A DNA stretch of 40,009 bases, counting the filler, from an uncultured virus (IMG/VR IMGVR_UViG_2502082094_000001) (Duplodnaviria; Heunggongvirae; Uroviricota; Caudoviricetes). It is 6 parts of one record of this genome, joined end to end, with 100 filler letters (N's around TTAATTAATTAA, not from the genome) between each part and the next. Parts side by side here need not be neighbours in the genome. Positions count along the whole stretch, not along the records: positions 1 to 4,749 come from IMGVR_UViG_2502082094_000001; positions 4,850 to 10,650 come from IMGVR_UViG_2502082094_000001; positions 10,751 to 18,231 come from IMGVR_UViG_2502082094_000001; 3 more parts are not named here. One strand, 5' to 3'. Shown in pieces: positions 2,658-36,991 of this stretch. Numbering within the stretch: position 1 is the first letter of the stretch; every line of letters begins with the position of its first letter. The translations under genes and the position numbers were made by a program. Under the pieces are notes generated by a model. The model saw only the letters and a list, made by a program, of their open reading frames with translations. It was not told the origin of the DNA and did no database searches.

Positions 2658-2978
2658 TTACAATTTTTCTGCTTCAATATCGAATTCTTCTAGCAATACT
2701 CTCTGGCACAATTCTACTACTTCATCGGCTTCTTCAATGATAACACCATCAGATTCTACAAGCCTCTGTTTCATTCTCATCGTAGCAATAACGGAAGCTA
2801 TTGCTTGGTCTTTGCTTACTGTGCCAATACTGTCAGTTATATCTGGTTCGGCTTGGATAATGGAGTCGTATGCTTCAGAAAACCGCTGTGCTTCCTCTAG
2901 ATTCGTGAGACCGAGTGAGTCTAGAGGGCAACTAACTCCATCTACTTTCCAATCTCCGTATGCGTATTTCTTGCTCAT
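2658..2978 (-). CDS. hypothetical protein
   Basis: acidic ORF, likely start MSKKYAY. Confidence 0.6.
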   Translation of the reverse strand: MSKKYAYGDWKVDGVSCPLDSLGLTNLEEAQRFSEAYDSIIQAEPDITDSIGTVSKDQAIASVIATMRMKQRLVESDGVIIEEADEVVELCQRVLLEEFDIEAEKL

Positions 2979-3122
2979 TCTTGCATAGTGTTGAATTCTT
3001 CTCCACAATGCTCACACAATGGAGTGGAGGAACGCTTGACTCTTGTTTTTGTATATTGTCTGTTCACCTGTGGACAGTTGTGAATGTAGTACTCGTGCCA
3101 AGGCATTGTTCTGTCTATAAGT

Positions 3123-3187
3123 TAACTTCCGGCTCCCAATATGAGCCTCTCTGAATGAGTCAGGCTTGGCGGTAGGCCACCAAGTTT
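3123..3187 (-). ncRNA. three-hairpin element copy 1
   Basis: AAA-CTTGGTGG/CCGCCAAG-C-CTGA/TCAG-AGA-GGCTC/GAGCC-GGAAGTTA. Confidence 0.8.
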
Positions 3188-3211
3188 GAGAAGATAGAAC
3201 ATCGTTCTATA

Positions 3212-3544
3212 CTATTCGTTATCCTCCTCGATTACTTCTTCAATGCCTTCTAGTTCTACAGCGAAGGGGCCGTCAGTTTCTACTTTGTAGTCTTTACCTC
3301 GGAAAGTGATAAAGAAATACGACGCAGTGAACCAGACTCCGTTTGCGTATTGCTGTAGTACAAACCTTTCTTCGGTCTTTGCGAAGTGGGCTTCAAGCTC
3401 TTCCTCCTCAGAGCTCAGCTCACAACCGTACTCTGTGACTTTAAACGTTGGATCTTTGGCTTTAATCTCAGCCAACATCGACTGTGCTTCTTCGGCAGAG
3501 ATCTGAGACGATCCCTGATATTGACTTATTATATCTTTAACCAT
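3212..3544 (-). CDS. hypothetical protein
   Basis: acidic 110-aa ORF between elements 1 and 2. Confidence 0.65.
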   Translation of the reverse strand: MVKDIISQYQGSSQISAEEAQSMLAEIKAKDPTFKVTEYGCELSSEEEELEAHFAKTEERFVLQQYANGVWFTASYFFITFRGKDYKVETDGPFAVELEGIEEVIEEDNE

Positions 3545-3584
3545 AGGTCTTAACTCTTTTTTGTTATTGTACTAAGTTGTCTAC

Positions 3585-3649
3585 TAACTTCCAGCTCCCG
3601 TTATGAGCTTCTCTGCTGTTAACAGGCTTAGCAGTAGGCTGCCAAGTTT
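3585..3649 (-). ncRNA. three-hairpin element copy 2
   Basis: AAA-CTTGGCAG/CTGCTAAG-C-CTG/CAG-AGA-AGCTC/GAGCT-GGAAGTTA. Confidence 0.8.
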
Positions 3650-3675
3650 AAAAAGTTTGTGATGCTTGTGAAACT

Positions 3676-5087
3676 TTACTTGTAATACCCGTCTAGTATT
3701 CTACGCTGTACGGTAGCATAGTCAGCTTCCGCACTAAAGTTAGTGCCACCGATTGTCTTGTAGAAGGCACGGCGCAAAGATATATCTTCGTTGAAGTTAG
3801 TCATGGTTTCTCCACCGTGGGAAGCAACTATAACCACTCGTTGAATCAGAGACGTAGCTAGCTCGGATTTCCTACAATTGAGCCTGTCCTTATGGATATA
3901 TAAGTTGTCTTCTTTATCTTTCCACACGTCCTTGTGATTGGAGTAACCAGCCTTTACTGTTACCCGAACTCCAAGGTCATCTAGAGCCGATTCAATTATC
4001 TCAAGATGCTTGAGACGCCGCTTGCTGAGGTTATCACGAGCAATCTCACTCATCTCGAATTGTAGATCTTTTTGGATTATATCCTCAAAGTCTCGGATTG
4101 AGGAGCTATCGGTGTTAGAAGCATGACCCGAAGCAAGCGTTTTGAACGATTCTTGCTGGTTTGAGTCTAGAATTACGGCATCTCCACGGTCCATAGCCGC
4201 TTCAGCAGATTTGTTGTTTGCTTCAGCAAAGCCCACGTCGCGGCCTTCTACTTCTGATATTGTACGCATATCCCCTGAAACGTCTTTTAGCAAGGGTTTG
4301 TTCTTGACTGCTTCAAACACCTTAGGGGAGTCGGCGGCTCGCTCCACGAGCCATTCACGTTTTCTGCTGTTCAATTCGTCTTGTTCTTTTAGGTACTGAG
4401 TTGCTACTGCTTTGTATTCCTTTTTGATCTCGCTCCAATATGGGTCAGAATCTAGAATGTCGGTCCGATCTAGAGTTACATCCAAGTCAGCCTTACTGAT
4501 AATACCGATGCTTACAGGCCCAAGGTTGAACCTGTTAACTAAAGCACCTTTGTTATACACTTCACTGGTTGATAGCACACCTGAACCAGGCTCGATGTAA
4601 TATGCTAGCTCTGTGTCCTCGGCCACATCCGGCTCTTCTCCGACTGTGGAGCCGTTCACGTACACATCTACGTTGTGGAACCAAGTAACGTAGCGTGCCA
4701 GCTTTTTGAATTCTGCTATGGTTCTGTTTACATCATCTATTGGTTCGTANNNNNNNNNNNNNNNNNNNNNNNNNNNNNNNNNNNNNNNNNNNNTTAATTA
4801 ATTAANNNNNNNNNNNNNNNNNNNNNNNNNNNNNNNNNNNNNNNNNNNNATGTCTGAGTCTTTAGCCCGAACTGGCTGAAGTACTTTTGTACTTCTTGTT
4901 CGGTCATGCTATCTCCATTATCGCTGATGGTACTACGATCTTCGGTCACATCAAGATGGAACTCAGTAGCGTTTGCGTCTACCGAGTTCATAAGCGCTTC
5001 GAGCCACGCTTTCTCGATTACACCGCTCTGTTTCCTCATCACATCATGTAGCAAGCCTTCAGTGGCTTGGAAGTTTTGTTTTGGCAT
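3676..5087 (-). CDS. GHKL (HSP90/MORC-like) ATPase protein, interrupted by an assembly gap
   Basis: N-box EALMNSVDANA and G1-like ISDNGDSM in 4850..5087; the long ORF 3676..4749 is assumed to be its C-terminal part across gap 4750-4849. Confidence 0.75.
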
Positions 5088-5200
5088 TAGTAGCTTCTAC
5101 AAAGGGTACAGTTATTGTGCTCTCCGTCCAGTTCTTCACAAAGCGGGACACCGCACGTCTCGCATGACTCTCCCGTAAGCGTGTATGGTCCTATGCTCAT
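5087..5200 (-). CDS. 37-aa zinc-finger microprotein
   Basis: MSIGPYTLTGESCETCGVPLCEELDGEHNNCTLCRSY; two CxxC; TAATG overlap with the next gene. Confidence 0.6.
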   Translation of the reverse strand: MSIGPYTLTGESCETCGVPLCEELDGEHNNCTLCRSY

Positions 5201-5214
5201 TTCTTTTTGCCTTA

Positions 5215-5280
5215 TAACTTCCGCGCCCTTCCGGGGCTCTCTGGTGGCTAACCAGGCTTGCTCGGAATATGAGCAAGATT
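5215..5280 (-). ncRNA. three-hairpin element copy 3
   Basis: AAT-CTTGCTC/GAGCAAG-C-CTGG/CCAG-AGA-GCCC/GGGC-GC-GGAAGTTA. Confidence 0.8.
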
Positions 5281-5307
5281 AAATAATGTACGTGCTCAGA
5301 TAAGTGC

Positions 5308-5838
5308 TTAGAAACTAGCGTCGAACCCGTCTGGGAATGGTTGATCTACGTGCTTCATAGCCGACTTAATTCTGCTCTTTTTGACTTCTAAGTCTGCCAG
5401 TTCTTTTTGTATGCTTTCCCACTCAGCATAGATAGAACTTTGAGACGAGCTAAGATCTAGTGCTGTGTCAGGCACGTTCCGTGGGTCTTGCTCCATATTG
5501 GATAAGGTATCACCGACTTCTCTTTGCCTTTCCATTAGGGTTGTCTTCGTTTCACAGTAATCCTGATACTCTTTGTGTATTACGTCTATTAAGTGTATCT
5601 CACAGAAGCTAGTTGACCTGAAACTCCCAGTCACAGCATTTGGACAGTTATCTGCTGAACATAACCATCCAGACCCCATGCTCATTAGACAATCTAAGCA
5701 CATCACTTCAGATACTCCTGGATTTATCGGGTTATCACAGCAATTCACACACAGACCTAGATCATCTGCGTGGTCCCAGTCACCGAATTCTTTTGTCGGC
5801 TCTCTCTCAATTGGGTTGTAATCTCTTGAGTGTTTCAT
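5308..5838 (-). CDS. Cys-rich zinc-finger and coiled-coil protein
   Basis: CVNCC, CLDC, C-x4-C, CEIH then a heptad-rich C-terminus. Confidence 0.65.
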   Translation of the reverse strand: MKHSRDYNPIEREPTKEFGDWDHADDLGLCVNCCDNPINPGVSEVMCLDCLMSMGSGWLCSADNCPNAVTGSFRSTSFCEIHLIDVIHKEYQDYCETKTTLMERQREVGDTLSNMEQDPRNVPDTALDLSSSQSSIYAEWESIQKELADLEVKKSRIKSAMKHVDQPFPDGFDASF

Positions 5839-6212
5839 TCTTGTGGCTTCACGTTATCCGCAAGATTTTGTATCTCTTGAAGCATGTACTGTACATTTTC
5901 CATCTTCTGCTTCAAGTCCTCTTCCATCACTTCTCGTTCTTCATCTGGCAGATCTCCATCTTCAAGCTCATTTACTATCCGTTGAGCATCTAAGACTACA
6001 CCACGCGCGTTATGTGCTTCGCTTTCTAGTCCCCCTAGACTGGCGTTAAGCTTCATTAAGTTAACTTCATCTGGGTCATCTGTATTTAGATTTATCCCTC
6101 TATTCTTTTCTGATGATGCTTCAGCGACTATTTCTCCGCCAAGGTCAACAATGGTCTCTCGGAAATGAGAATGCTCGTACTGATCTGCTTCAAGTTTGAT
6201 TGTGTATATCAT
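5835..6212 (-). CDS. hypothetical coiled-coil protein
   Basis: acidic ORF, ATGA overlap with the next gene. Confidence 0.65.
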   Translation of the reverse strand: MIYTIKLEADQYEHSHFRETIVDLGGEIVAEASSEKNRGINLNTDDPDEVNLMKLNASLGGLESEAHNARGVVLDAQRIVNELEDGDLPDEEREVMEEDLKQKMENVQYMLQEIQNLADNVKPQE

Positions 6213-6252
6213 TGCTTTTTTGAGGCAGTTTTATAACTTGCTTAGGTTAAGT

Positions 6253-6297
6253 CCCACGGTGTGGACTCGAACCACACTCTAGCAGTACCTACGCGGG
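6253..6297 (-). ncRNA. mini-tRNA (t-element) 2
   Basis: CCCGCG..GTGTGG-TTCGAGT-CCACAC-CGTGGG. Confidence 0.7.
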
Positions 6298-6340
6298 GCT
6301 CAGCGCTTATAAAAGATGGTGGTTACTTTTTTACGCTACG

Positions 6341-6607
6341 CTATTCTTGGAGATCCATGAGGAACTCCCTGACTGCCTCGGACTCCTCGTTGTGTAGCTC
6401 CCGCTCGACCGCTACCAAGAAGTCTCCCACGATCTGACGCCGGTTGACCTGAGAGTCTTGGACAGCGTTAGCTGCTTGGAAGTGGTTTCGCATCACTTCT
6501 TCACTTGCGTAGGTTGGCTCATTATCAGGATGGTCCGGGTTAGCCATCGTGATATGAGTCTGCTTCTGTACTGACTGGCTACTGTCTCTGTATTCTTCAA
6601 GTCCCAT
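6341..6607 (-). CDS. hypothetical protein with MGLEEY tag
   Basis: ORF track; weak similarity to the 14169 protein (T..DHP..DF). Confidence 0.65.
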   Translation of the reverse strand: MGLEEYRDSSQSVQKQTHITMANPDHPDNEPTYASEEVMRNHFQAANAVQDSQVNRRQIVGDFLVAVERELHNEESEAVREFLMDLQE

Positions 6608-6621
6608 GTTTATGGCTCCAT

Positions 6622-6693
6622 TGACTTCCGCCCTCGGTCACAGGGCTCTGTGACCCGCTGTGGAGCCACGCTTGCTGGTAAGCCAGCAAGATT
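6622..6693 (-). ncRNA. three-hairpin element copy 4
   Basis: AAT-CTTGCTGG/CCAGCAAG-C-GTGG/TCAC-AGA-GCCCT/AGGGC-GGAAGTCA. Confidence 0.8.
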
Positions 6694-6741
6694 GAAATAT
6701 TTTGAGTATTCATCTTTTTACCGCTCTATTCTCTGTGTGTT

Positions 6742-7036
6742 TTACAGATGCTCTTCTATGTATTCGTCTCGGAATTGACGTATATCTTCTTTGGTCTCTT
6801 CTGATATTCTGATTCCATCAGCACCATCTTGTTCAATAGCTCTGTTCATCCGTTGTAGAATAGCCTTGTCTCCATTTCCCTCCGAGTGTATGGCGGCTTG
6901 ATAAGCCCACTCTGGAGAAGTACAGATTAAATTATCCCAGAAGAAGGCTTCCATCTGTACGTTTTCTATCTTCTTCCCTGGTTTTGATAGATCTGCTTTG
7001 TCCAGTGCTATCCTGTTTAAAGTCTTCTAGTCCCAT
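6742..7036 (-). CDS. hypothetical protein with MGLEDF tag, probable frameshift error near 6976
   Basis: ATG 7036 MGLEDFKQDSTG joins ORF 6742..6954 if one base is removed near the GGG run. Confidence 0.55.
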
Positions 7037-7077
7037 TATTCGTTACTGTATGAAATATTCGTTTGGCTTTGGTCTTT

Positions 7078-7413
7078 TTACTCCCAGTGCTGGTTGTATT
7101 TCAGGGTCTCGAAGTCTAAGTCCGTGAGTTCGGACGAACCATCTTCTCTTGTGTTGTAGTCCCAAGCACGGAGTGCCATGAACCACACACTCAAGAACTG
7201 CTGAGCTGTTGGAAGGTCAGCAGGAGCATGGTACTGGTAATCTGCCAGCTGGTTCTCCATGACTCCCATGATCTTCTCTAGTTGCTCCGGCTCGCACGAG
7301 AAGATGGTCTCGTGGAGCACCTGTGGGTCGGCGTCTAGCAACAAGTGTAGCTCGCCGTAATCAGTGAACAGTCTGTCTACTGCTTCTTCGGATTGGTCAG
7401 TATTGTCTGACAT
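7078..7413 (-). CDS. hypothetical protein
   Basis: acidic ORF directly downstream of element 5. Confidence 0.65.
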   Translation of the reverse strand: MSDNTDQSEEAVDRLFTDYGELHLLLDADPQVLHETIFSCEPEQLEKIMGVMENQLADYQYHAPADLPTAQQFLSVWFMALRAWDYNTREDGSSELTDLDFETLKYNQHWE

Positions 7414-7429
7414 AATTTTAGTCCACTAC

Positions 7430-7500
7430 TAACTTCCGGTCTCCAATATAGACCTCGCTGTTGGGTATCTCAACAGGCTCGCTGGTGGGCCAGCGAGTTT
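7430..7500 (-). ncRNA. three-hairpin element copy 5
   Basis: AAA-CTCGCTGG/CCAGCGAG-C-CTGTTG/CAACAG-CGA-GGTCT/AGACC-GGAAGTTA. Confidence 0.8.
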
Positions 7501-7620
7501 CTCGGTTTCTACAGTGTATGTAGACGCCACTCGTGTTGAGAGGTACGGTCGGCATACATATAAACGTTGCGTCTCGGTTTTTTCAGTCAAATATGTGTAT
7601 AGATCTGTGTATTCTATATG

Positions 7621-7905
7621 CTATTCTCCATCGTTAATCAGTGTATCAAAGTAAGAATCGGGAATGTCCATAGTCATAAGGGCAAAAAGCATGGCTATGT
7701 CGTTTATATCCCCCTCAATTCTACCGTCTTCAAGATCTATGTCCATATCCTGTTGTCTCACCCGGTGTCTGATGTTCGAGGCTATGTGCTCCTTTGTAGA
7801 TTCTTCTTGTTTTTGTTTTACCTCGTTATCAGTTGTTTCTTCTTCCGTTTCTTGATCTTTTTCCTCTTCGTCATCGTCGTCTAATTGAAAGTCTTTGAGT
7901 CCCAT
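7621..7905 (-). CDS. hypothetical protein with MGLKDF tag
   Basis: ORF track; acidic linker after the tag. Confidence 0.65.
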   Translation of the reverse strand: MGLKDFQLDDDDEEEKDQETEEETTDNEVKQKQEESTKEHIASNIRHRVRQQDMDIDLEDGRIEGDINDIAMLFALMTMDIPDSYFDTLINDGE

Positions 7906-7910
7906 GTTTG

Positions 7911-8306
7911 CTACAACCCTATTATTTCAAGCAACTCTGAGTAGTGGCGCTGGATAGTACGCGGATTTACGTTTAGTTCGTATGCTATTACTGCTTGTCT
8001 ATCAGGCTCAGTAAACATTAACGAAGCAGCATATAATGCTGCTGCGGCAACGGATCTTGCTCTTACTTTAGGATTAGGGTCACAGTAATATGCGTCTACC
8101 ATAGCCAAAGCAGCGTCTGTTGGAGAACTGTAACCTGCTTGTTTGTCTACCACATGATCTGACTTTTTAACCTTTTTGGAAATCTTTCTGTACTTTGTTC
8201 TTCTTCGAGTCGATCTGAAATCGGTTGAATACGACTTCGGCTCTCCAAAGTCGTAATCCTGTACTTCTTGTCGGGCTTGCTTATGCTTGCTCTTCAGCGA
8301 GGTCAT
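7911..8306 (-). CDS. TFB (TFIIB) single cyclin-repeat-like protein
   Basis: RSVAAAALYAASLM...QAVIAYELNVNPRTIQRHYSEL matches the TFB repeat pattern; no Zn ribbon. Confidence 0.7.
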   Translation of the reverse strand: MTSLKSKHKQARQEVQDYDFGEPKSYSTDFRSTRRRTKYRKISKKVKKSDHVVDKQAGYSSPTDAALAMVDAYYCDPNPKVRARSVAAAALYAASLMFTEPDRQAVIAYELNVNPRTIQRHYSELLEIIGL

Positions 8307-8520
8307 CGAACACTCCATCATGGAGAAAGTCGTCGTCTAGTATTACGCGCTCGACTTCTATGACTTCGTAGTGCCATTCTAATATCTGTTCATCTGTCAG
8401 TGCCTGTCTAACGGCTTCTTCCGGCGTCTCACAGAACACTTCTTTGGGTATCCACACATCCCGTGGTTCTTCCTCTTCTACTGGTAATTCTTCAGTGAGC
8501 AACACCATGTAGCGTGTCAT
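8281..8520 (-). CDS. hypothetical protein
   Basis: ORF track. Confidence 0.55.
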   Translation of the reverse strand: MTRYMVLLTEELPVEEEEPRDVWIPKEVFCETPEEAVRQALTDEQILEWHYEVIEVERVILDDDFLHDGVFDDLAEEQA

Positions 8521-8557
8521 AGTTTGTAGTTTCTAGTTTTAAGCCATCTCGGGCTAA

Positions 8558-8596
8558 GCCCTGTTCTGGAGTCGAACCAGAAAAAGCCGTCAGGGT
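8558..8596 (-). ncRNA. mini-tRNA (t-element) 3
   Basis: CCCTG..TTCTGG-TTCGACT-CCAGAA-CAGGG. Confidence 0.65.
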
Positions 8597-8600
8597 GAGT

Positions 8601-8861
8601 TTAGATTGGAGGTCTTATACTGCTTTCTTTTTGTTCTTCATCAGAGCAATTACACACGTAATTAGTGAAGTCCTGATCTTCATCTTCGTCTTCGATGTAA
8701 CATAGACAGTATCCGCATACCTTTGAGGCGGCAAATTCCCAGCCTTCCATCTCGACCATTTCTACTACTTTGTCGGCAAAGTAGCCTCGGACTCTGATTT
8801 GTCTTTCGACAACTATCGGTTCTCCGTCAGATCCAGCTGCGACAGTATAATGGTTAGTCAT
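8601..8861 (-). CDS. small protein with CxxC...CxC
   Basis: CGYC and CNC. Confidence 0.55.
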   Translation of the reverse strand: MTNHYTVAAGSDGEPIVVERQIRVRGYFADKVVEMVEMEGWEFAASKVCGYCLCYIEDEDEDQDFTNYVCNCSDEEQKESSIRPPI

Positions 8862-8863
8862 TC

Positions 8864-9136
8864 TTATCCTCGGAATACCTCGTGCTCGTCTTCAGGCCCA
8901 TACACTTCTACGTTATCGAACTGGTAACTCTGGATCGTAAATGCTTCGAGTTGAGCCTCTACAACGTTAACTGCTAGTCTGTATGCCTGTGAGCTTGTTT
9001 CTGCTTGGACTCCTAGACCTATCTGATATTGGTTATCTCCAATCCGCTCTTTGTGTATTCCTCCTTGTATTACTTCTAGTATATTCTTACGGGAGTTTGT
9101 GCTGAAGTCTACTAAGACGTTGTAAGTGCTTGTCAT
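8864..9136 (-). CDS. hypothetical protein
   Basis: ORF track, tightly packed. Confidence 0.6.
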   Translation of the reverse strand: MTSTYNVLVDFSTNSRKNILEVIQGGIHKERIGDNQYQIGLGVQAETSSQAYRLAVNVVEAQLEAFTIQSYQFDNVEVYGPEDEHEVFRG

Positions 9137-9137
9137 G

Positions 9138-9428
9138 TTAGTCGTTAAGTTCGTTGTAGTACTGCCGCGCTTCTTCTCGTGCTTCTTGACGGACTGCGAA
9201 TCGGTTCTCGTATGGTAGCACCTTGAATTTCTCCACTGTTTCTATGTCTTCTGGCCCTGTGAGTTCTCCCCACGGGGGCTCGTGTACCACAAGAAAGTAC
9301 ACAGCATCCTCATCGCTTACATTCTTGATCAACTTTACAGTATCTGTAATGTCATCTCCACTGCCGAACGTCTCAATTACTTTCAGTGCCTCTACGGTGT
9401 ATGAAGTGGTATCAGGTTGTACTTTCAT
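9138..9428 (-). CDS. hypothetical protein
   Basis: likely start MKVQPD; the track's TTG start lies inside element 6. Confidence 0.6.
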   Translation of the reverse strand: MKVQPDTTSYTVEALKVIETFGSGDDITDTVKLIKNVSDEDAVYFLVVHEPPWGELTGPEDIETVEKFKVLPYENRFAVRQEAREEARQYYNELND

Positions 9429-9445
9429 GTATGTTTTCTTTCTTT

Positions 9446-9510
9446 TAACTTCCAAGCATCAATATGCTTTCGCTGGGTTTAACAGGCTATAGGCTAGGAA
9501 GCCCATGATA
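9446..9510 (-). ncRNA. three-hairpin element copy 6
   Basis: ATGGGCT/AGCCTAT-AG-C-CTG/CAG-CGA-AAGCAT/ATGCTT-GGAAGTTA. Confidence 0.75.
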
Positions 9511-9534
9511 AATGTCTAAGTTTTGGTTTAGCTA

Positions 9535-9873
9535 TTAGCTCACAGGCATAATATCACCTTCCTCAAACTCCCAAGTAGAAGAAGACATTACACCTGTTCT
9601 GCTCAACTCACGGCACTTTTCTATTGCTTTCTCATATGCCTCCTTGAACGTTCCGGTAAAATAAAAAGATACTGTACCCATAGTCACGCTTTCTGGGATA
9701 AGATTGTGTTCGCCTAGATCATCATTCCAAGTAGCCAGATTAGCCGCTTTCATTCTTTGCTCAATACGAGGTGGATCTCTGGCATGTAGGAATATATTCC
9801 ACTCGTGTTCTTCGGTACGCTCTTCTTCAAGAAAATCTTCTCGTGGCTCTCCTTTGACGTATTTGCTTGACAT
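9535..9873 (-). CDS. hypothetical protein
   Basis: ORF track. Confidence 0.6.
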   Translation of the reverse strand: MSSKYVKGEPREDFLEEERTEEHEWNIFLHARDPPRIEQRMKAANLATWNDDLGEHNLIPESVTMGTVSFYFTGTFKEAYEKAIEKCRELSRTGVMSSSTWEFEEGDIMPVS

Positions 9874-9880
9874 CTGTTGC

Positions 9881-9994
9881 TTAGCACCTGTGTAAGTCGA
9901 TGGTTACTGCGCTCATTACTTCTCCGCAATCTGTACAGCGTACTTTTGAAGCGTCTCGTTGCTCCCACACGAAAGGGTCTGGTGGACTATTCAT
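9881..9994 (-). CDS. 37-aa zinc-finger microprotein
   Basis: MNSPPDPFVWEQRDASKVRCTDCGEVMSAVTIDLHRC; CxxC...HxC. Confidence 0.55.
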   Translation of the reverse strand: MNSPPDPFVWEQRDASKVRCTDCGEVMSAVTIDLHRC

Positions 9995-10170
9995 TTGGGT
10001 GCCTTTGAGAAGACAAGAGTTATACCGGCCTCGTGCTCATATGAACTTGTCGGCTCAACTCCCACGGCTTCAAGTTCTTGTCTAATTTCTGCTTCTTCAC
10101 CTTCTTCGATAGTCACTTTCATCTGGTCGATACTGTTCTCGCCAAGTTGGTCTATAATTTCTTGGTACAT
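9991..10170 (-). CDS. 59-aa hypothetical protein
   Basis: MYQEIIDQLGENSIDQMKVTIEEGEE...; ATGA overlap with the next ORF. Confidence 0.55.
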   Translation of the reverse strand: MYQEIIDQLGENSIDQMKVTIEEGEEAEIRQELEAVGVEPTSSYEHEAGITLVFSKAPK

Positions 10171-10180
10171 TTTACTGGTC

Positions 10181-10246
10181 TAACTTCCGAACCTTAGCGG
10201 GTTCTCGGTGGGTGGACTCCACGCCTGAGCCAAGTAGCTCAGGTTT
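10181..10246 (-). ncRNA. three-hairpin element copy 7
   Basis: AAA-CCTGAGC/GCTCAGG-C-GTGG/CCAC-CGA-GAACC/GGTTC-GGAAGTTA. Confidence 0.8.
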
Positions 10247-10292
10247 AATAAATAGTAGTGAGTGTGTTCGATGTGTTTACTTACTTACTCCA

Positions 10293-10514
10293 TCAGGGAA
10301 CGTATTCTTGTTGGTCGGTCTGCTCAACACCATCAATACTTTCGAGCCCCCTGATTGATAGGCTCAACTGTTCGGCTAGGTATAGTGCCAGTTGTTCCTC
10401 GGTGAAACCTTTGTCGTCTTCGACAAGTAAAGTAGCGTCGAAAACATCAACTTCTGGGTTCGATTCTGCGTTCGGTACGTTAAAGTTCAAGTCGACTTGA
10501 ATCTCTTGTGACAT
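10293..10514 (-). CDS. hypothetical protein
   Basis: ORF track. Confidence 0.55.
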   Translation of the reverse strand: MSQEIQVDLNFNVPNAESNPEVDVFDATLLVEDDKGFTEEQLALYLAEQLSLSIRGLESIDGVEQTDQQEYVP

Positions 10515-10750
10515 TGTAGTGCTAGTCTTCTGCTGGAGTTATGTGTACTGGCTTGTCCTCACCATCTTGGTTATCTATGCCTACCAGTGCTCCACCAGCG
10601 TTACACTCTGGGTCTTGTGCTGGGTAAATGAGAGATCCATTCTCAAGAACNNNNNNNNNNNNNNNNNNNNNNNNNNNNNNNNNNNNNNNNNNNNTTAATT
10701 AATTAANNNNNNNNNNNNNNNNNNNNNNNNNNNNNNNNNNNNNNNNNNNN

Positions 10751-10802
10751 CTTCTGGTTCTGTGCCACACTTCGGACAACGTGCTCTGACATCTTTACCC
10801 AT
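10751..10802 (-). CDS. CPxCG zinc-finger protein, partial (runs into gap)
   Basis: MGKDVRARCPKCGTEPE. Confidence 0.5.
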
Positions 10803-10813
10803 GTTAGTCTTTT

Positions 10814-10847
10814 GTTGGCTCCCTAAATCAGCGGAGCCGTACTGAAA
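10814..10847 (-). repeat. type-2 intergenic hairpin repeat copy A
   Basis: TTTCAGTAC-GGCTC-CGCTGATTTAGG-GAGCC-AAC. Confidence 0.65.
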
Positions 10848-10865
10848 TAATAGTCTGGGTGCGTG

Positions 10866-11270
10866 TTACTCTTCTGGCTGTTCTACCTCGCCGTACTCGT
10901 ATGTCACCTCTCCGATGCTGTCTCTGGCGAGAAAGATAAAGTCTATGCTGAGATGTTCTGTCTCTTCCATTCTGTAAACAGGGAAGCCCATAGACTTTCC
11001 GCTGAGGAGCAGATCTTTATCACTCGGCCTGAATGTCAGGACAAGCGTGTTGTCTTCCACCTTGGCAGATTTATCTCCTCCGTACTTCACCTGTATCTTG
11101 TCGTACTCTTCTCCTACTCTTCCGTCGTCTCTCAGATGGAAGCTGAAACCCTTGTTTCTTTTGGCTCCCATAGCGAGCCTGAAGGGTACTTGAACGTCGA
11201 TAACGTCTCGACCTATCAGCGTGTCGCCTCCGAATACGACAGCGTCTAAGACTGTTTGTGGTTCTGTCAT
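10866..11270 (-). CDS. hypothetical beta-rich protein
   Basis: ORF track. Confidence 0.6.
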   Translation of the reverse strand: MTEPQTVLDAVVFGGDTLIGRDVIDVQVPFRLAMGAKRNKGFSFHLRDDGRVGEEYDKIQVKYGGDKSAKVEDNTLVLTFRPSDKDLLLSGKSMGFPVYRMEETEHLSIDFIFLARDSIGEVTYEYGEVEQPEE

Positions 11271-11273
11271 AGT

Positions 11274-11309
11274 GTTGACTCGCCTAAAATTGCGCGAGCC
11301 GTACTGAAA
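11274..11309 (-). repeat. type-2 intergenic hairpin repeat copy B
   Basis: TTTCAGTAC-GGCTCG-CGCAATTTTAGG-CGAGTC-AAC. Confidence 0.65.
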
Positions 11310-11323
11310 GAGCGGTTGTCCAT

Positions 11324-11674
11324 CTATTCTATCTCATGCTCACTGAGCAGGCGTATCATGTTCTCGTAGTTGTTGCTTACCACTTGCCTAGAGTTGCCGA
11401 ACACATCCTTTACATCCTCGTGAGTTCTCTTGACGTTGAACATCAGAGAGGCTGCGTAGTACGCTGATGCTGCGATGGTTTTGGGAGCTTTTCCTCCCAC
11501 GTACCCAGTAAGGTACGCCGCATCTATCAGTGCGTGTCCGTAGTTCTCCGGCGTGGAGTAGAAGTCCACACTCGTTGGCCGAGGATCACCTAACGGGTTT
11601 TCCTCGACCCCTTGCCTGAACTGTCTGTGCGCCTTCTGTCTCGGGCTCCGGTTGATCTGTATTCTGTTTGTCAT
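11324..11674 (-). CDS. TFB (TFIIB) single cyclin-repeat-like protein
   Basis: GGKAPKTIAASAYYAASLMFNVKRTHEDVKDVFGNSRQVVSNNYENM. Confidence 0.75.
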   Translation of the reverse strand: MTNRIQINRSPRQKAHRQFRQGVEENPLGDPRPTSVDFYSTPENYGHALIDAAYLTGYVGGKAPKTIAASAYYAASLMFNVKRTHEDVKDVFGNSRQVVSNNYENMIRLLSEHEIE

Positions 11675-11790
11675 CTACAACTGTTTGCTATCTGTTATTC
11701 CGCCTACTATACAATCTTCGCGCACGCGCGCGTTACGCGCGAGGCACTATCTGCGTGTAGGTTTTTCATTCTATCAGTCGAACATCACAT

Positions 11791-12147
11791 CTATCTCAGC
11801 GTACCCAGATTCTGGCTTGTTTTGTTTGACTGAGAAGCCAAAATGACTCCCAAAGGTTCAGTAAAATACAACACCTCGTTTCTGGTGAGAAAGCCCTCAA
11901 GCCGCACCAACTTGATAAGAAATACAGATGGCTCATCATCAGACTCGAATGTTCTAAGAGTCCCAACTACAGATACGTTAGCGTTATCGACTAAGCAGTC
12001 CATTACATCGTGCTTCGTAGAGTCATCCTGGCTTTTGACTACAATATCCAGATCTCCAACCTGCTCCCGCACATCGCCTATGTTGGATGTTTCTACTCTT
12101 ATGTCTTCTTTTACTGTCTTGTCGTTGTTGAGTGTACTGAATGTCAT
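11791..12147 (-). CDS. hypothetical protein
   Basis: likely start MTFSTLNN; the track start overlaps element 8. Confidence 0.55.
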   Translation of the reverse strand: MTFSTLNNDKTVKEDIRVETSNIGDVREQVGDLDIVVKSQDDSTKHDVMDCLVDNANVSVVGTLRTFESDDEPSVFLIKLVRLEGFLTRNEVLYFTEPLGVILASQSNKTSQNLGTLR

Positions 12148-12168
12148 GCTATTGTCTTGTACTACTTC

Positions 12169-12235
12169 TGACTTCCACCCCTCTGTGGGGGCTCGCTGGG
12201 AGTAGTAACCAGGCATAGGGCTTGACCCCATGATA
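12169..12235 (-). ncRNA. three-hairpin element copy 8
   Basis: CATGGGG/CCCTATG-C-CTGG/CCAG-CGA-GCCCC/GGGGT-GGAAGTCA. Confidence 0.75.
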
Positions 12236-12417
12236 AATAATATCTCGTTTCGGTTCTAACCCTACTGTCTTTCCTCGTACAGTTGTTTCACGGCTTGCTC
12301 GGCTTCTTCAGCCAGTTTGATGGTGTCTCTACTGGCATCAGCATCTTGTAGAGCGTCTATTAGTTGAGCCGCATGGTGCTCAGCATCATCTAAAGCCTCG
12401 CGTTGTGTTCTCATTAG

Positions 12418-12651
12418 TTACCACTCGTGATCTGGATGATTGATACTGCCCCGCTTGTGTTCTTCTACTGAAACAACCTCTGTATGTCTTCGGCAATCTA
12501 GGGCCAGTTGTTCGGCTTGAGCAGTTGAGGTAGCCTCCACGGTGACGTGGCCAGGCATGTCTGACATAGTGCGGGTGTATACTCGGTACTTCTGTTCTTC
12601 ATTATCATCCTCGCTACTAGGGCCTTCGAGGAACGTGTCTAGGTTTGCCAT
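12418..12651 (-). CDS. hypothetical protein
   Basis: likely start MANLDTFLEG. Confidence 0.55.
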   Translation of the reverse strand: MANLDTFLEGPSSEDDNEEQKYRVYTRTMSDMPGHVTVEATSTAQAEQLALDCRRHTEVVSVEEHKRGSINHPDHEW

Positions 12652-12761
12652 AGTGCTTGTGTTTCCTCGTTTAGTGTTAACCGGCTCCACCTCGGGGAGG
12701 TATGAGGTACTAGGAGCCATGTATAAATATATGTACTACAAATGTATTAGTTGTCTAGAAT

Positions 12762-12965
12762 CTACTCTTCCAAATCCGACCTAAGATCTCTGTATGTGGT
12801 CTGAACTTCTATGTCGCTAAACTCCGTTAGGTCATCAACATCAAGATCAGCTCCATCTGTCTCATCGTATGCCTGAAGCATAACAGATAGGTGCTCGTTC
12901 ATCTCTTCTGCGTCAACACGACCTAACGCTGCGACTGCTGCGAGTTGTTCTCGGGAGTTCATCAT
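12762..12965 (-). CDS. hypothetical protein
   Basis: likely start MMNSREQ just after element 9. Confidence 0.55.
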   Translation of the reverse strand: MMNSREQLAAVAALGRVDAEEMNEHLSVMLQAYDETDGADLDVDDLTEFSDIEVQTTYRDLRSDLEE

Positions 12966-12977
12966 GTGTTCTCCTAA

Positions 12978-13049
12978 TAACTCTCGCGGTCTACAATAGC
13001 CGCTCGGTGGAAGGAGTATGCCACGCCTAATGCTAAGCAGCACAGGCTT
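12978..13049 (-). ncRNA. three-hairpin element copy 9
   Basis: AAG-CCTGTGCT/AGCATTAGG-C-GTGG/CCAC-CGA-GCGG/CCGC-GAGAGTTA. Confidence 0.7.
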
Positions 13050-13243
13050 ATAAATATGTTGAAGACGTTATAAGTCTTCTACCCGGTTATTCTCCGGTGA
13101 AGACAAGTTAGTCTTCGTCTCGGTAGTCCCAATACCCTCGCTTGCCGTGCCCGTCTAGTTCAGGGTCTTGCTCGTTGTTATCAACACTGTCGTCGTCTGA
13201 GTGATAGTAGTCCTCCGACCAGGTAGCGTTGTGTCTAGTCATC

Positions 13244-13408
13244 CTAGTTCTGTGGGTGCTCAACGTCTAGATTGTATGCCAGTTCGTCATTAACAGTGAA
13301 GTCTGGGCTCGGCTCGTCCCTATCATCTAATGGGGACTGGTTAAGCCGCTCTCCGGTATGCTTGTCGAACTCAGTCTCGTACTCGTTTGAATCCCTAAAG
13401 TCGTTCAT
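13244..13408 (-). CDS. small acidic protein
   Basis: likely start MNDFRDS after element 10. Confidence 0.5.
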   Translation of the reverse strand: MNDFRDSNEYETEFDKHTGERLNQSPLDDRDEPSPDFTVNDELAYNLDVEHPQN

Positions 13409-13423
13409 GGTAGTATGTGTCAC

Positions 13424-13487
13424 TAACTCCCGCCTCGGTGGCTCGCTGGAGACACGACCAGGCCTGCGGCTCACAGCCGCTAGGTTT
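13424..13487 (-). ncRNA. three-hairpin element copy 10
   Basis: AAA-CCTAGCGGCT/AGCCGCAGG-C-CTGG/CCAG-CGA-GCC/GGC-GGGAGTTA. Confidence 0.75.
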
Positions 13488-13506
13488 AGTATAAAGGGGA
13501 AATGGG

Positions 13507-14064
13507 TTATTCGAGAAGCCCCTCGTGCGCTAAGTCCTCGATGGTATGAGAACTACACACAGGAACCTGCCGGTGCTTCTGTAGATCTATCTCCATCATA
13601 GCTACCTCGTTGCTATCAGACTCAGTCCCGCATACCCTACACGTCCGGGTAGAACTAGGCTTACTACCCGGAGGGAAGTATGTCCGCTCTCGTAGCTGTT
13701 CTAACTGCTGGGGCTGGTCCTCAAGCACTTCACGAGGGTCCGTATCTAGCTGGTCCTGGGCTCTGTTACAGAACCGTAGCCACGCCCGCTTAGTGGCACA
13801 GCGATATAGGATACGGAACTCTTTACTGGGGTGCTCGTCTAGCCTACGGAAGTCCTCTCGGTCCTCCAAGACGGCAGCATCGCCTACGTGAGTGTAGACA
13901 TCTCCAACTTGGTCCTTCGCTACGAGCACATAGGGAGCACCGAAGTCTAGTTTAGTGTGCCAGTTGTAGCGGCCTCGGTTGAGGCTCTCCGTAGATGTCT
14001 GGCTGCCTGTGCCGCTGTTCGAGGAGGAACCCGAGGTGCCTCCCTGGAACTCTTCTAATCCCAT
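13507..14064 (-). CDS. protein with MGLEEF tag and C-terminal zinc finger
   Basis: MGLEEFQ, Ser/Gly linker, CRVC...CSSH. Confidence 0.7.
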   Translation of the reverse strand: MGLEEFQGGTSGSSSNSGTGSQTSTESLNRGRYNWHTKLDFGAPYVLVAKDQVGDVYTHVGDAAVLEDREDFRRLDEHPSKEFRILYRCATKRAWLRFCNRAQDQLDTDPREVLEDQPQQLEQLRERTYFPPGSKPSSTRTCRVCGTESDSNEVAMMEIDLQKHRQVPVCSSHTIEDLAHEGLLE

Positions 14065-14144
14065 GCTCGGCTCTCCGTGTCTATGGTAGTCATCTGTGGT
14101 CTATGAAGTTGCCTACCACCCTAGATATCAGTGATACTACTGAC

Positions 14145-14167
14145 AAAAAAGGGGGTAGCCGGGCTAC
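14145..14167 (-). terminator. hairpin plus T6 terminator
   Basis: GTAGC-CCG-GCTAC-CCCC-TTTTTT immediately after the stop of the 14169 gene. Confidence 0.55.
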
Positions 14168-14168
14168 G

Positions 14169-14487
14169 TCACTCGTCGCTATCGTCGTCGTCGGCTAACT
14201 CCTCCGACAGTTCAGCGGCGCGCTCCTCGCTGAAGCCCAGCAACTCCAGCATAGGGGCCTCGTTGTTAGCGACGTAGGCCGTGAGGGCGGGAGTGGCGAC
14301 AGCGAAGAAGTCGTGAATATCGCTACCGAGAGCGTCTCGGAGGTCGCCTCCCGAGCGCGCCAGTTCGTAGGCCGTAGGGTGGTCTCGGCTATTGAACTCC
14401 ACGTAGGTAGTGCTCGGCTCGTCGGAGTCCGTCTCGTTGCTATCGTCCTGTGCGTCTGTGGCTTTGTAGGCGGCGAAGTCGGTCATG
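14169..14487 (-). CDS. first gene of the left arm, GC-rich, hypothetical
   Basis: MTDFAAYK...; consensus promoter upstream; near-identical second copy at 35797-36099. Confidence 0.7.
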
Positions 14488-14537
14488 GTAGTCACGAGTG
14501 CTGTCTGTCAACACTCAATTCGTTATACGACCGTCGA

Positions 14538-35796: not shown

Positions 35797-36545
35797 GCTA
35801 TCGTCGTCGTCGGCTACTCTCGACAGTCAGCGGCGCGCTCCTCGCTGAAGCCCAGCAACTCCAGCATAGGGGCTCGTTGTAGCGACGTAGGCCGTGAGGG
35901 CGGGAGTGGCGACAGCGTAGAAGTCGTGAATATCGCTGCCGAGAGCGTCTCGGAGGTCGCCTCCCGAGCACGCTAGTTCGTAGGCTCTAGGGTGGTCTCG
36001 GCTATTGAACTCCACGTAGGTAGTGCTCGGCTCGTCGGAGTCCGTCTCGTTGCTATCGTCCTGTGCGTCTGTGGCTTTGTAGGCGGCGAAGTCGGTCATG
36101 GTAGTCACGAGTGCTGTCTGTCAACACTCAATTCGTTATACGACCGTCGAATTAATAAGTCTTTCGCTCTAGGATGCTTTTACACCTTAAATTGTTAATA
36201 CCGCAAAACGTAAAATATTTTTGTTGCTCGCAAAAATTTTTTGCTTTTTTCGCAAAACGCGAATTTTATGAACTGGATAGCCGACCGGCTAACGGACCCC
36301 CCACTAAAATTCGGGTCCATGTTTTTGAAAATAATATCCCCCGTATATCAGGGATCTTACAGGGTCCGTACAGGTATATACACATGGAGATTAGCCGTAA
36401 TATTTATATCATAGAGTCCCAATAGCCAGAACATGAAGTATTTGGAAATCCCAGATGAACTCCACGAGCAGGCAGAAGACGTAATGGAAGAACATGGATA
36501 CAAGACATTCACTGAGTTCGTCAGAGAAGCAATAAGATTCAGAAT
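35797..36545. repeat. variant copy of 14178-14930
   Basis: near-identical to about 36295, diverges, then realigns at the RHH gene. Confidence 0.9.
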
Positions 36546-36576
36546 AATGAGGCTTAAGGAGGATGGTAAAGAATGA
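36433..36576 (+). CDS. RHH regulator, allele of 14815
   Basis: MKYLEIPDELHEQAEDVMEEHGYKTFTEFVREAIRFR. Confidence 0.8.
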   Translation: MKYLEIPDELHEQAEDVMEEHGYKTFTEFVREAIRFRIMRLKEDGKE

Positions 36577-36991
36577 CTGTTATCCAAGGACAACGAGAGT
36601 CAATAGAGCAAGGATTACAAACTTGCTTACTTGAGATCTTAGACAAAATGTATGACAATACAGAGAAAGAACCTGTACGAGAAAAACAAGGCAGAAGCCA
36701 GTTAGAATCTTCAGGATACTATCAGATGGATGTAGCAGTACCAGATGACAATATAGCTATTGAGTGTAAGGGAGTTAAGAATAATATTAAAAGAGGGATA
36801 GGGCAATGTATAGCATATGAGACAGATGGATGGGCAGCATACGTATGCGTCCCAGATGATTATATTAATGAAGATATGCTTAGACGGTGTATGAGGGCTC
36901 AGATAGGGCTTATTGGGGTAACAACAGACTCACTTGACAAAGATCTTACTGAATTTTATGAAATTAATGTGTATCTACAAATAGACACAGA
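36573..36991 (+). CDS. PD-(D/E)xK nuclease-like protein, truncated by a gap
   Basis: MDVAV..IAIECKG..GIGQCIAY. Confidence 0.7.

Follow-up and report, generated by a model that had tools for sequence, protein, structure and literature searches.

The 40,009-nt stretch of DNA analyzed here (the window; filler included) consists of six parts of one record of an uncultured virus assigned to the Caudoviricetes (IMGVR_UViG_2502082094_000001), joined end to end. On its minus strand, a short element with three consecutive hairpins (P1, P2 and P3) stands ten times in the gap before a block of small genes. The question that this locus raises is what kind of signal is repeated in such a way, at the level of the DNA or of the RNA. 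An earlier reading of the bare sequence (the original prediction) had taken the copies for a tertiary-folded RNA, such as a self-cleaving ribozyme, a structure that guides or blocks a nuclease, or a translation leader, and had mentioned a single-stranded DNA recombination site as a weaker alternative. Judged from its sequence, the repeat is a structure-conserved, strand-specific and uncatalogued cis element. Our preferred reading, to which we would give an even chance, is that of a protein-recognized RNA module, which would form the leader of early transcription units and the punctuation of read-through transcripts, and would in this way fix and protect mRNA ends.

Anatomy and extent of the family

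The copy positions given in the original prediction were recovered exactly, in the sense that there are ten copies and no more, all on the minus strand and within 3123-13484. The anatomy described for them was found in all ten as well. Read 5' to 3' on the minus strand, each element of ~61-72 nt is composed of P1 (7-9 bp), a single C (junction J12), P2 (with the stem STG...CAS), CGA or AGA (junction J23), P3 (3-6 bp) and the tail GRRAGTYA. J23 and, in a manual parse, the tail hold in 10/10 window copies. J12 is a single C in 10/10 if P1 of the copies at 9446 and 12169 is given its closing C-G pair, which is one pair beyond the earlier drawing. The copy at 6622 is atypical by eye, yet fits the consensus when aligned by a covariance model.

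A covariance model had been proposed in the original prediction as a way to check the family, and three were built: R1 from two copies, R2 from nine copies and R3 from all 23 copies described below. R1 found nine of the ten window copies at E <= 0.02. R2 found the copy that had been left out of it (12978) at 23.8 bits (E 3e-4), the next best match in the 40 kb scoring 9.9 bits, and both R2 and R3 recovered all ten copies with no other match in the window. The recovery of the copies confirms the family as more than chance.

A search based on the helicase encoded downstream of the repeats yielded seven related metagenome loci. One of these, L133, shares 99% identity with the window and contains seven of the same copies. 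Another three loci contributed 13 new copies (five in L134, six in L135 and two in L138; R2 scores 32-71 bits), all of them on the strand of the helicase gene and upstream of it; the helicases of these loci are 78, 66-67 and 61% identical, respectively. R3 added no copy beyond the 23, and the remaining loci hold too little upstream DNA. The family therefore comprises at least 23 distinct copies in four replicons. The locus of the window also occurs, at about 98-99.6% identity, on a 111.8-kb contig (C2) of G001, a 1.2-Mb, 82%-complete genome that shares 88% of the window's sampled words. Among 151 related genomes the element was present only in this near-identical one, with 11 copies that all lie in the same arm; no copy was found in 72.8 kb of the contig retrieved apart from the arm locus, nor in a further 20 kb of it (L132). 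Finally, three other samples yielded short contigs whose similarity to the copy at 7430 is confined to P1-P2 (7454-7500). Their flanks are unlike, and their loose ends show a P3 that differs in sequence but is paired, with a tail of the family type after it, which implies that more family members exist.

The models appeared specific. No match at E <= 1 was obtained in 339,204 bases of other loci, 39 viral loci with distant helicases held no copy, and R2 reached only 17.5 bits at best in 778,296 bases of viral contigs that had been pre-selected for the tail motif. A DNA pattern scan of viral contigs (CCAGCGA, gap, GGAAGTYA) produced more than 117 single chance matches, the best again scoring 17.5 bits with R2. 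The bare 8-mer GRRAGTYA is weakly enriched (24 matches versus 12.8 expected, with one of 100 shuffles reaching 24); the significance resides in the whole architecture and not in the bare 8-mer. Used alone or as an alignment against viral contigs, the helicase retrieved only helicases that are 22-26% identical, all without the element, and a helicase search of genome contigs found nothing. Single-protein scans of viral contigs gave one weak match for a 329-aa open reading frame (ORF) of the arm and none for an ORF with a TFIIB repeat (see below). The element is specific to a single clade of large, virus-like replicons, which carry PolB, clamp-like and tRNA genes.

Pairing, covariation and strand

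The freely varying stems and nearly fixed junctions of the original prediction are borne out by the alignments, as 13 of the 16 modelled pairs change on both sides while the junctions stay constant. Over the 23 distinct copies, 99.2% of the cells at the modelled pairs are paired against 69.4% after shuffling, and none of 500 shuffles reached the observed value; with partners slid along the alignment, 31-40% were paired. The 21 model-aligned copies of the window and G001 gave similar values (98.2% against 67.1%, 0/500 shuffles, and 31-42% with partners slid by 1-3 columns). The covariation score over the 23 copies was 0.767 versus 0.214. The 23-copy alignment was fitted to the model and thus favours pairing, a concern that is answered by the slid-partner controls and by a manual parse of the full stems. 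In that parse, the 23 copies contained 400 pairs, divided over 378 Watson-Crick pairs, 21 G-U pairs, no A-C pair and one other; P1 alone accounted for 165 Watson-Crick and 16 G-U pairs, again without A-C.

Given that a G-U pair would be a C-A mismatch on the opposite strand, the fold belongs to the coding strand, in line with the orientation first proposed. Folding is more favourable in sense than in antisense for 18/23 copies, and the minimum-energy fold recovers P1 in 22, P2 in 15 and P3 in 17 of the 23. Changes between close relatives follow the pairing to a large extent: between G001 and the window one P3 pair is changed on both sides (A-U to G-C), a P1 pair is swapped from G-C to C-G in a copy that is duplicated in G001, and of the other differences four are in loops and one breaks a pair. 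In five orthologous comparisons, with downstream proteins that are 31-73% identical, the stems differ and the pairing is kept; relative to adjacent coding DNA the element is more conserved in three of these and less in two.

The strand asymmetry bears on an explanation at the level of the DNA only, in which the element would be a promoter/terminator cassette with the T-rich box that precedes most copies as TATA box or terminator, P1 as a spacer or operator, and the RNA folds as by-products. A double-stranded palindrome or operator would not yield 21 G-U against 0 A-C pairs. Moreover, all three stems vary freely, and one DNA-binding protein could for that reason not read them. We consider this explanation unlikely; the evidence in its favour is given with the T-rich box.

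The ten copies and their fixed bases

The copies of the window are listed below from low to high coordinate, with the distance from the end of the tail to the ATG as spacer.

Copy 1, 3123..3184, minus strand: R2 76.1 bits, E 1.9e-16; J23 is AGA; without T-run, with a pyrimidine-rich stretch and AAA upstream; ATG at 3106, spacer 16 nt.
Copy 2, 3585..3646, minus strand: R2 74.2 bits; abutted by a T5+AAA box at 3647-3655; ATG at 3544, spacer 40 nt, the longest in the window.
Copy 3, 5215..5277, minus strand: R2 49.8 bits; T-rich box upstream; one-base bulge in P3, as also found in the P3 3' arm of the orthologue L135:6757 (orthology from the downstream protein, 73%/30 aa); spacer 14 nt to the ATG of a 37-aa Cys-rich ORF.
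Copy 4, 6622..6690, minus strand: R2 65.5 bits; long P2 loop (14 nt); T-rich box upstream; spacer 14 nt; orthologue L134:4843, downstream proteins 63% identical.
Copy 5, 7430..7497, minus strand: R2 71.3 bits; without adjacent T-rich box, the upstream 123-nt gap containing a TATA-like box and further inverted repeats; spacer 16 nt; orthologues L134:4408 and L135:4440.
Copy 6, 9446..9507, minus strand: R2 50.5 bits, the model match covering 9446-9497 and the rest coming from the manual parse; bulged A in P1; T-rich box upstream; spacer 17 nt; duplicated in G001.
Copy 7, 10181..10243, minus strand: R2 52.9 bits; T-rich box upstream; spacer 10 nt.
Copy 8, 12169..12232, minus strand: R2 60.3 bits; T-rich box upstream; ATG at 12147, spacer 21 nt, with another in-frame ATG within P1 (12231).
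Copy 9, 12978..13046, minus strand: R2 23.8 bits, E 3e-4, though left out of R2; the most divergent copy, with tail GAGAGTTA and long loops; T-rich box upstream, itself preceded by a hairpin; spacer 12 nt.
Copy 10, 13424..13484, minus strand: R2 39.3 bits; the most upstream copy of the arm; P3 of 3 bp only; T-rich box upstream; spacer 15 nt.

Against the background of varying stems, a small number of positions is constant over the 23 copies. P1 is preceded by AAA (A at -2 in 22/23), its first pair is C-G in 23/23 and its fourth position is a G, with C or U opposite, in 21/21. The junction between P1 and P2 is a C in 23/23, the second pair of P2 is U-A in 23/23 and the third is G-C in 21/22. 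J23 reads CGA in 16 copies and AGA in seven. The tail reduces to GNNAGTYR, with AGTTA in 19 copies; tails such as GCTAGTTA and GTTAGTTA also occur in the relatives, where the purine part is not conserved. With respect to length, P1 is the most constrained (19-22 nt in total, sd 0.71, about 8 bp), compared to spans of 12-23 nt (sd 2.8) for P2 and 11-18 nt (sd 1.4) for P3.

Relation to known RNA families

The element had not been recognized as a member of a known family in the original prediction, and the Rfam check agrees. Rfam 15, the families of which include hammerhead, twister, pistol, hatchet, HDV-like, tRNA-like and C/D sRNA, gave 0 matches at the gathering score over the whole window; at E <= 10 over 2900-13700 there were two unrelated weak matches, neither of them at a copy. 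Our literature searches yielded no description of the element, which large catalogues of candidate viral RNAs (such as PMC10690425) could hold unnamed. Several other identities were considered and rejected. A tRNA-like nature was dropped, as ARAGORN finds no tRNA in the window and the loops are by inspection unlike anticodon and T-loop patterns. Kink-turn (tandem sheared G-A pairs after a 3-nt bulge), bulge-helix-bulge (two 3-nt bulges around a 4-bp helix) and sarcin-ricin (AGUA/GAA strands) motifs were compared with the consensus by eye; none of them agrees with the G/A order of the tail or with hairpins that are serial and not nested. Hammerhead-core and tetraloop-receptor readings were also weighed by eye and dropped.

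The tertiary fold suggested in the original prediction received no robust support, in that pairing between loops or between loop and tail was not robust in any of six tests. With loops shuffled internally and with partners permuted, respectively, L1-L3 pairing gave p 0.02 and 0.06 and L3-tail pairing 0.08 and 0.012; neither was counted, and the other four pairings were at chance. These data touch on the proposal that the element is a new self-cleaving ribozyme, which would cut the polycistronic early RNA at each copy. In its favour, the element combines conserved unpaired junction nucleotides with freely varying stems, the copies are intercistronic and repeated, and the same replicon encodes a LigT-like 2H phosphoesterase (a weak link). 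Yet there is no match to an Rfam ribozyme even at E <= 10, the hairpins are serial, without a three-way junction or closing helix to hold a catalytic core, the tertiary contacts that were proposed lack significance, and the fixed junction bases are limited to one C, MGA and AGUYA. Nothing thus points to the suggested self-cleavage, and we regard it as highly improbable.

The T-rich box and the start of transcription

A T-rich box is found directly 5' of P1 in 8/10 window copies and in 18/23 overall (T-run within 12 nt), followed in the window copies by AAA, by AAT/AAG, or in two cases by TAT. Five copies keep P1 without a T-rich box. Three of these are orthologues in three replicons, and they show a separate TATA-like box together with other inverted repeats 40-60 nt further upstream. 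In 200 kb of chromosomal sequence of G001, the regions before ORF starts are T-rich at -31 to -28 and A-rich at -27 to -23, a spacing that is the grammar of leaderless archaeal promoters, and they also show a Shine-Dalgarno-like peak near -14. Read by the grammar of this presumed host, the box would place the start ~21-24 nt further on, at the end of P1, at the C or at the first P2 bases, an arrangement already raised in the original prediction as a point against a full-length RNA fold. At the same time the T-runs look like archaeal terminators, some being preceded by a hairpin (12978; a site near 14100). The box would accordingly be a putative terminator, a putative TATA box, or both.

The DNA-level cassette draws its support from this region. 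The T-rich box with AAA abuts P1 in 18/23 copies, and because P1 is of fixed length (19-22 nt), the invariant G-C-S-T-G falls about at the start expected from the host grammar; in addition, the element is located at cassette indel joints. What such a cassette leaves unaccounted for is that P2, P3 and the tail are downstream of any plausible start and yet covary, and that the five copies without a T-rich box retain the full fold. Considering that P1 covaries with 16 G-U and 0 A-C pairs and is kept without the box in five copies, RNAs spanning P1 must exist and matter. Most likely, whole-element RNAs are under selection, as primary leaders or as read-through products from the upstream unit.

The T-runs also bring up a put-like anti-termination or anti-polarity RNA, which would shield the untranslated gap or modify the RNA polymerase. 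Terminator-like T-runs directly precede most copies, and a terminator-like site consisting of a hairpin and T6 lies further upstream. On the other hand, the element comes after the T-run and not before it, ten copies would be needless for a processive modification, and fixed junction bases would be needless for mere shielding. We regard this possibility as very improbable.

Comparison with known viral repeats

Repeated promoter cassettes are documented for both haloarchaeal viruses and T4-type phages, which counts in favour of a DNA-level cassette. The intergenic repeats of HF2 are described as carrying promoters, with the start site inside the repeat; the class I and II repeats are 58 and 29 bp, conserved in sequence, and their promoter role was shown by experiment (PMC8707807). 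The element shares with these HF2/haloferacalesvirus repeats the repeated intergenic position before gene blocks of an archaeal tailed virus, the AT-rich TATA-like box, the conserved place among related viruses and the conserved sequence around and after the start site (PMC8707807). We indeed found a repeated intergenic element with a T-rich box in 18/23 copies and with orthologous positions in related replicons. Unlike the HF2 repeats, it has varying, covarying stems and three hairpins after the box, and its promoter activity is putative. The HF2 beta (TCTTTAAGTC) and gamma (CGTCTNNTAGAG) motifs gave five and four one-mismatch matches against 4.2 and 3.2 expected, none at the copies, a lack of enrichment that argues against the DNA-level reading.

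A second parallel is the TATA-like box plus inverted repeat that precedes most left-arm ORFs of HGTV-1 and that was likened to the PeSLs of T4 (PMC3950731). T4-type PeSLs are described as promoter/stem-loop cassettes (PMC4122927). In both, most small ORFs of one arm are preceded by a T/A-rich box to which an inverted repeat is attached, and both are linked with indels and with the shuffling of ORFan cassettes, as may be the case here; the same composite, a T-rich box directly followed by P1, was found before ten gene blocks. The element differs in its three hairpins, fixed junction bases and fixed tail, and also in that its pairing appears to be selected on one strand, which points to an RNA role that is not claimed for PeSLs in the cited descriptions. 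R3 found no member in the whole HGTV-1 record (best 14.2 bits, E 0.11, at 102 kb and thus outside the left arm), which again speaks against a cassette of this DNA type, and none in HCTV-1, HCTV-2 or HCTV-5. When repeats were sought in the first 20 kb of HGTV-1, one three-copy motif was recovered. Even if the element were only a promoter cassette, it would still extend the HF2/HGTV-1/PeSL theme to a new virus clade.

Distance to the start codon

Each copy in the window heads a block of one to four close-packed small ORFs, and the short and rather constant distance to the start codon that had been noted earlier is confirmed, with spacers of 10-21 nt and one of 40. Of the 23 copies, 16 have their tail 14-18 nt before the ATG and 21 have it 9-21 nt before. 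The narrow spacing would suit a translation-initiation enhancer, with the module and its AGUYA tail recruiting or positioning the small ribosomal subunit on mRNAs that have a leader and no Shine-Dalgarno site, in the manner of an internal ribosome entry site (IRES) or a standby site. The fact that Shine-Dalgarno-like words precede only 2/10 of the led genes, while such words peak near -14 in the host, is also in keeping with this. Other genes of the arm, however, are likewise poor in such words (3/20, a rough count with two start coordinates mis-set) and do without the element. Furthermore, two copies are at 40 and >80 nt from the next ATG, and the purine part of the tail varies in the relatives. 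Overall, an enhancer of this kind appears distinctly unlikely.

Copies as possible joints between gene cassettes

The copies are conserved islands between fast-changing genes, and may for that reason act as joints of gene cassettes. In the G001 contig a tandem duplication ends at the copy at 9446, adding ~0.7 kb + ~0.3 kb (L004 11266-12934 against 8836-9512 in the window) and yielding a second, diverged version of this element, in which P1 and P2 are new but paired. Contigs of two other samples have the same junction at 9475. Taken together, the contigs of other samples break at 9446, at 9475 and at 7454 or 7459, in addition to the matches confined to 7454-7500; the events are few and the junction positions vary.

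Such events would also be expected from an attC-like site, folded as single-stranded DNA and moving gene cassettes by recombination. The cassette duplication and the breakpoints at the copies fit this, structure is kept while sequence varies, and G-T wobble on one strand would be as suitable for folded single-stranded DNA as G-U is for RNA. Several observations are difficult to reconcile with it, since the breakpoints are scattered (9446, 9475, 7454 or 7459), the scan of arm ORFs gave no recombinase domain, and the tail with its following bases does not fit the GTTRRRY core in the 23 copies by inspection. Whereas attC sites are found 3' of their cassettes, the copies precede genes and keep a fixed distance to the ATG, which suggests a role in expression, and orthologous copies stay in place while they diverge. 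A site of this type is therefore hardly to be expected.

Proposed function

Returning to the protein-recognized RNA module, the element would act as RNA: each early unit would have it as a folded 5' leader, and in read-through transcripts from the upstream unit it would serve as intercistronic punctuation. A dedicated protein, either a nuclease or an RNA-binding factor, would read the unpaired AAA, C, MGA and AGUYA together with the basal pairs of P1 and P2, and would fix and protect the termini of early mRNAs. The hairpin stack would stop just outside the footprint of the initiating ribosome on the start codon. The T-rich box would supply the termination of the preceding unit, the TATA box of its own unit, or both, and the copies would in addition be the joints at which cassettes are duplicated, lost or exchanged.

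Several observations weigh against this proposal. The folding energy is modest (mean z -1.82, below -2 in 11/23 copies), and the tight length of P1 relative to P2 would suit a DNA spacer as well. A start at the P1/P2 junction would mean that P1 is absent from the primary transcript of its own unit and could act only in read-through RNA. By a TATA matrix refined from host upstream regions, which is weak, the box is the best match in ~4/23 flanks, and only 2/23 flanks reach the random 95th percentile. No conserved partner protein for the element was identified. Finally, other gaps of the same arm have no element, so that it is not needed by every unit.

In T7, RNase III sites are found between the early genes, in the form of single irregular hairpins that are cut by a known host enzyme. 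For halovirus phiH1, long primary transcripts were reported to be processed (as cited in PMC8707807). The element resembles these systems in being a repeated folded RNA between early genes that would punctuate a long transcript and leave protective hairpins at the new ends. It differs from the T7 sites in having three hairpins and in being known from sequence alone.

A still wider claim would be that the element represents a new class of functional viral RNA in viruses of very small archaea of salt lakes, either as a small self-cleaving or nuclease-guiding punctuation or as an archaeal IRES-like signal ~15 nt upstream of the start, for leadered mRNAs without a Shine-Dalgarno site. We consider this quite unlikely; if true, it would serve these viruses to distinguish their early messages from those of the host.

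To our knowledge, few structured RNAs are known from archaeal viruses, and our literature searches found no archaeal-virus structured RNA like this one. It also is, as far as we know, an open question how leadered archaeal mRNAs without a Shine-Dalgarno site are stabilized and translated. What appears to be new here, at the level of sequence, is a three-hairpin, strand-specific and covarying module with fixed junction bases that is joined to a box-hairpin cassette. With 23 natural variants, near-perfect compensatory pairing, a handful of fixed bases and a clear setting, it lends itself directly to tests of how archaeal viruses process RNA or use leaders, of how terminator, promoter and RNA signals overlap when genomes are compact, and of the way in which repeated regulatory modules drive the shuffling of ORFan cassettes.

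Genomic setting and other features of the arm

The small ORFs of the arm are almost all ORFans. Downstream of the arm, on the same strand, are genes for a UvrD-type helicase, a DUF3987 protein and a LigT-like phosphoesterase and three tRNA genes, followed by genes for a family B DNA polymerase, deaminase-like proteins, a clamp-like protein and an AAA_24 ATPase. On basis of this content the locus has the appearance of the early/replication arm of a large, virus-like archaeal replicon of hypersaline lakes. The gene content resembles that of large tailed viruses of haloarchaea and nanohaloarchaea, as described in bioRxiv 10.1101/2025.02.15.638363. No capsid or terminase gene was found in the gene content of this replicon. 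Runs of N (4750-4849, 10651-10750 and 13 more, some around a TTAATTAATTAA spacer) interrupt genes, including the HATPase_c_3 gene of the arm, and ORF calls at these places are incomplete.

Other features of the arm and its surroundings are the following.

7911-8321, minus strand: ORF of 136 aa with one TFIIB cyclin repeat (PF00382, E 5e-5).
11324-11674, minus strand: ORF of 116 aa with one TFIIB cyclin repeat (PF00382, E 6e-8).
8566-8580 and 6259-6277, minus strand: intergenic hairpins with a loop and stem like a tRNA T-arm (GGTTCGAnTCC type).
~11271-11309 and 10802-10850, minus strand: a second, two-copy cassette, TTTCAGTAC followed by a GC-rich hairpin ~14 nt before ATG.
~12671-12730, minus strand: T-rich box and nested hairpin ending in GGTTAACA; the hairpin (12720) may be coding.
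14100-14500, minus strand: segment of higher G+C with an acidic ORF, ending in a hairpin, CCCC and six T, terminator-like.
35797-36991: 1.2-kb stretch matching L004 17523-18723 (98.8%).

The two TFIIB-repeat ORFs have a short N-terminal stretch in common and may be virus-made mimics of a transcription factor. The 136-aa ORF has no relative but itself among 5.8 billion protein clusters. As a cognate factor of the element these ORFs were rejected, given that their only homologues are the ORFs themselves and that neither was detected in the related arms. ARAGORN calls no tRNA at the T-arm-like hairpins, which could be remnants of tRNA fragments or cores of attachment sites (compare the tRNA-like attP of HF2). 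The further box-hairpin cassettes in the gaps suggest that a T-rich box with an immediately following hairpin is a general habit of the arm.

A common start motif, MGL[ED][ED][FY], is encoded at the ATGs at 6607, 7036, 7905 and 14064 (minus strand), at L134:4921 and at the start of the helicase (L004:3882 region). It occurs in at least five small ORFs and the helicase, with MGF in one case, and is either a common N-terminal tag or a conserved nucleotide signal at the translation start. The 14100-14500 segment is just upstream of the first gene of the arm with this type of start, and the sign of the GC skew flips near 14 kb, where the arms diverge. The 1.2-kb stretch adjoins the upstream end of the arm in G001, and is a rearrangement or a repeated segment between near-identical replicons.

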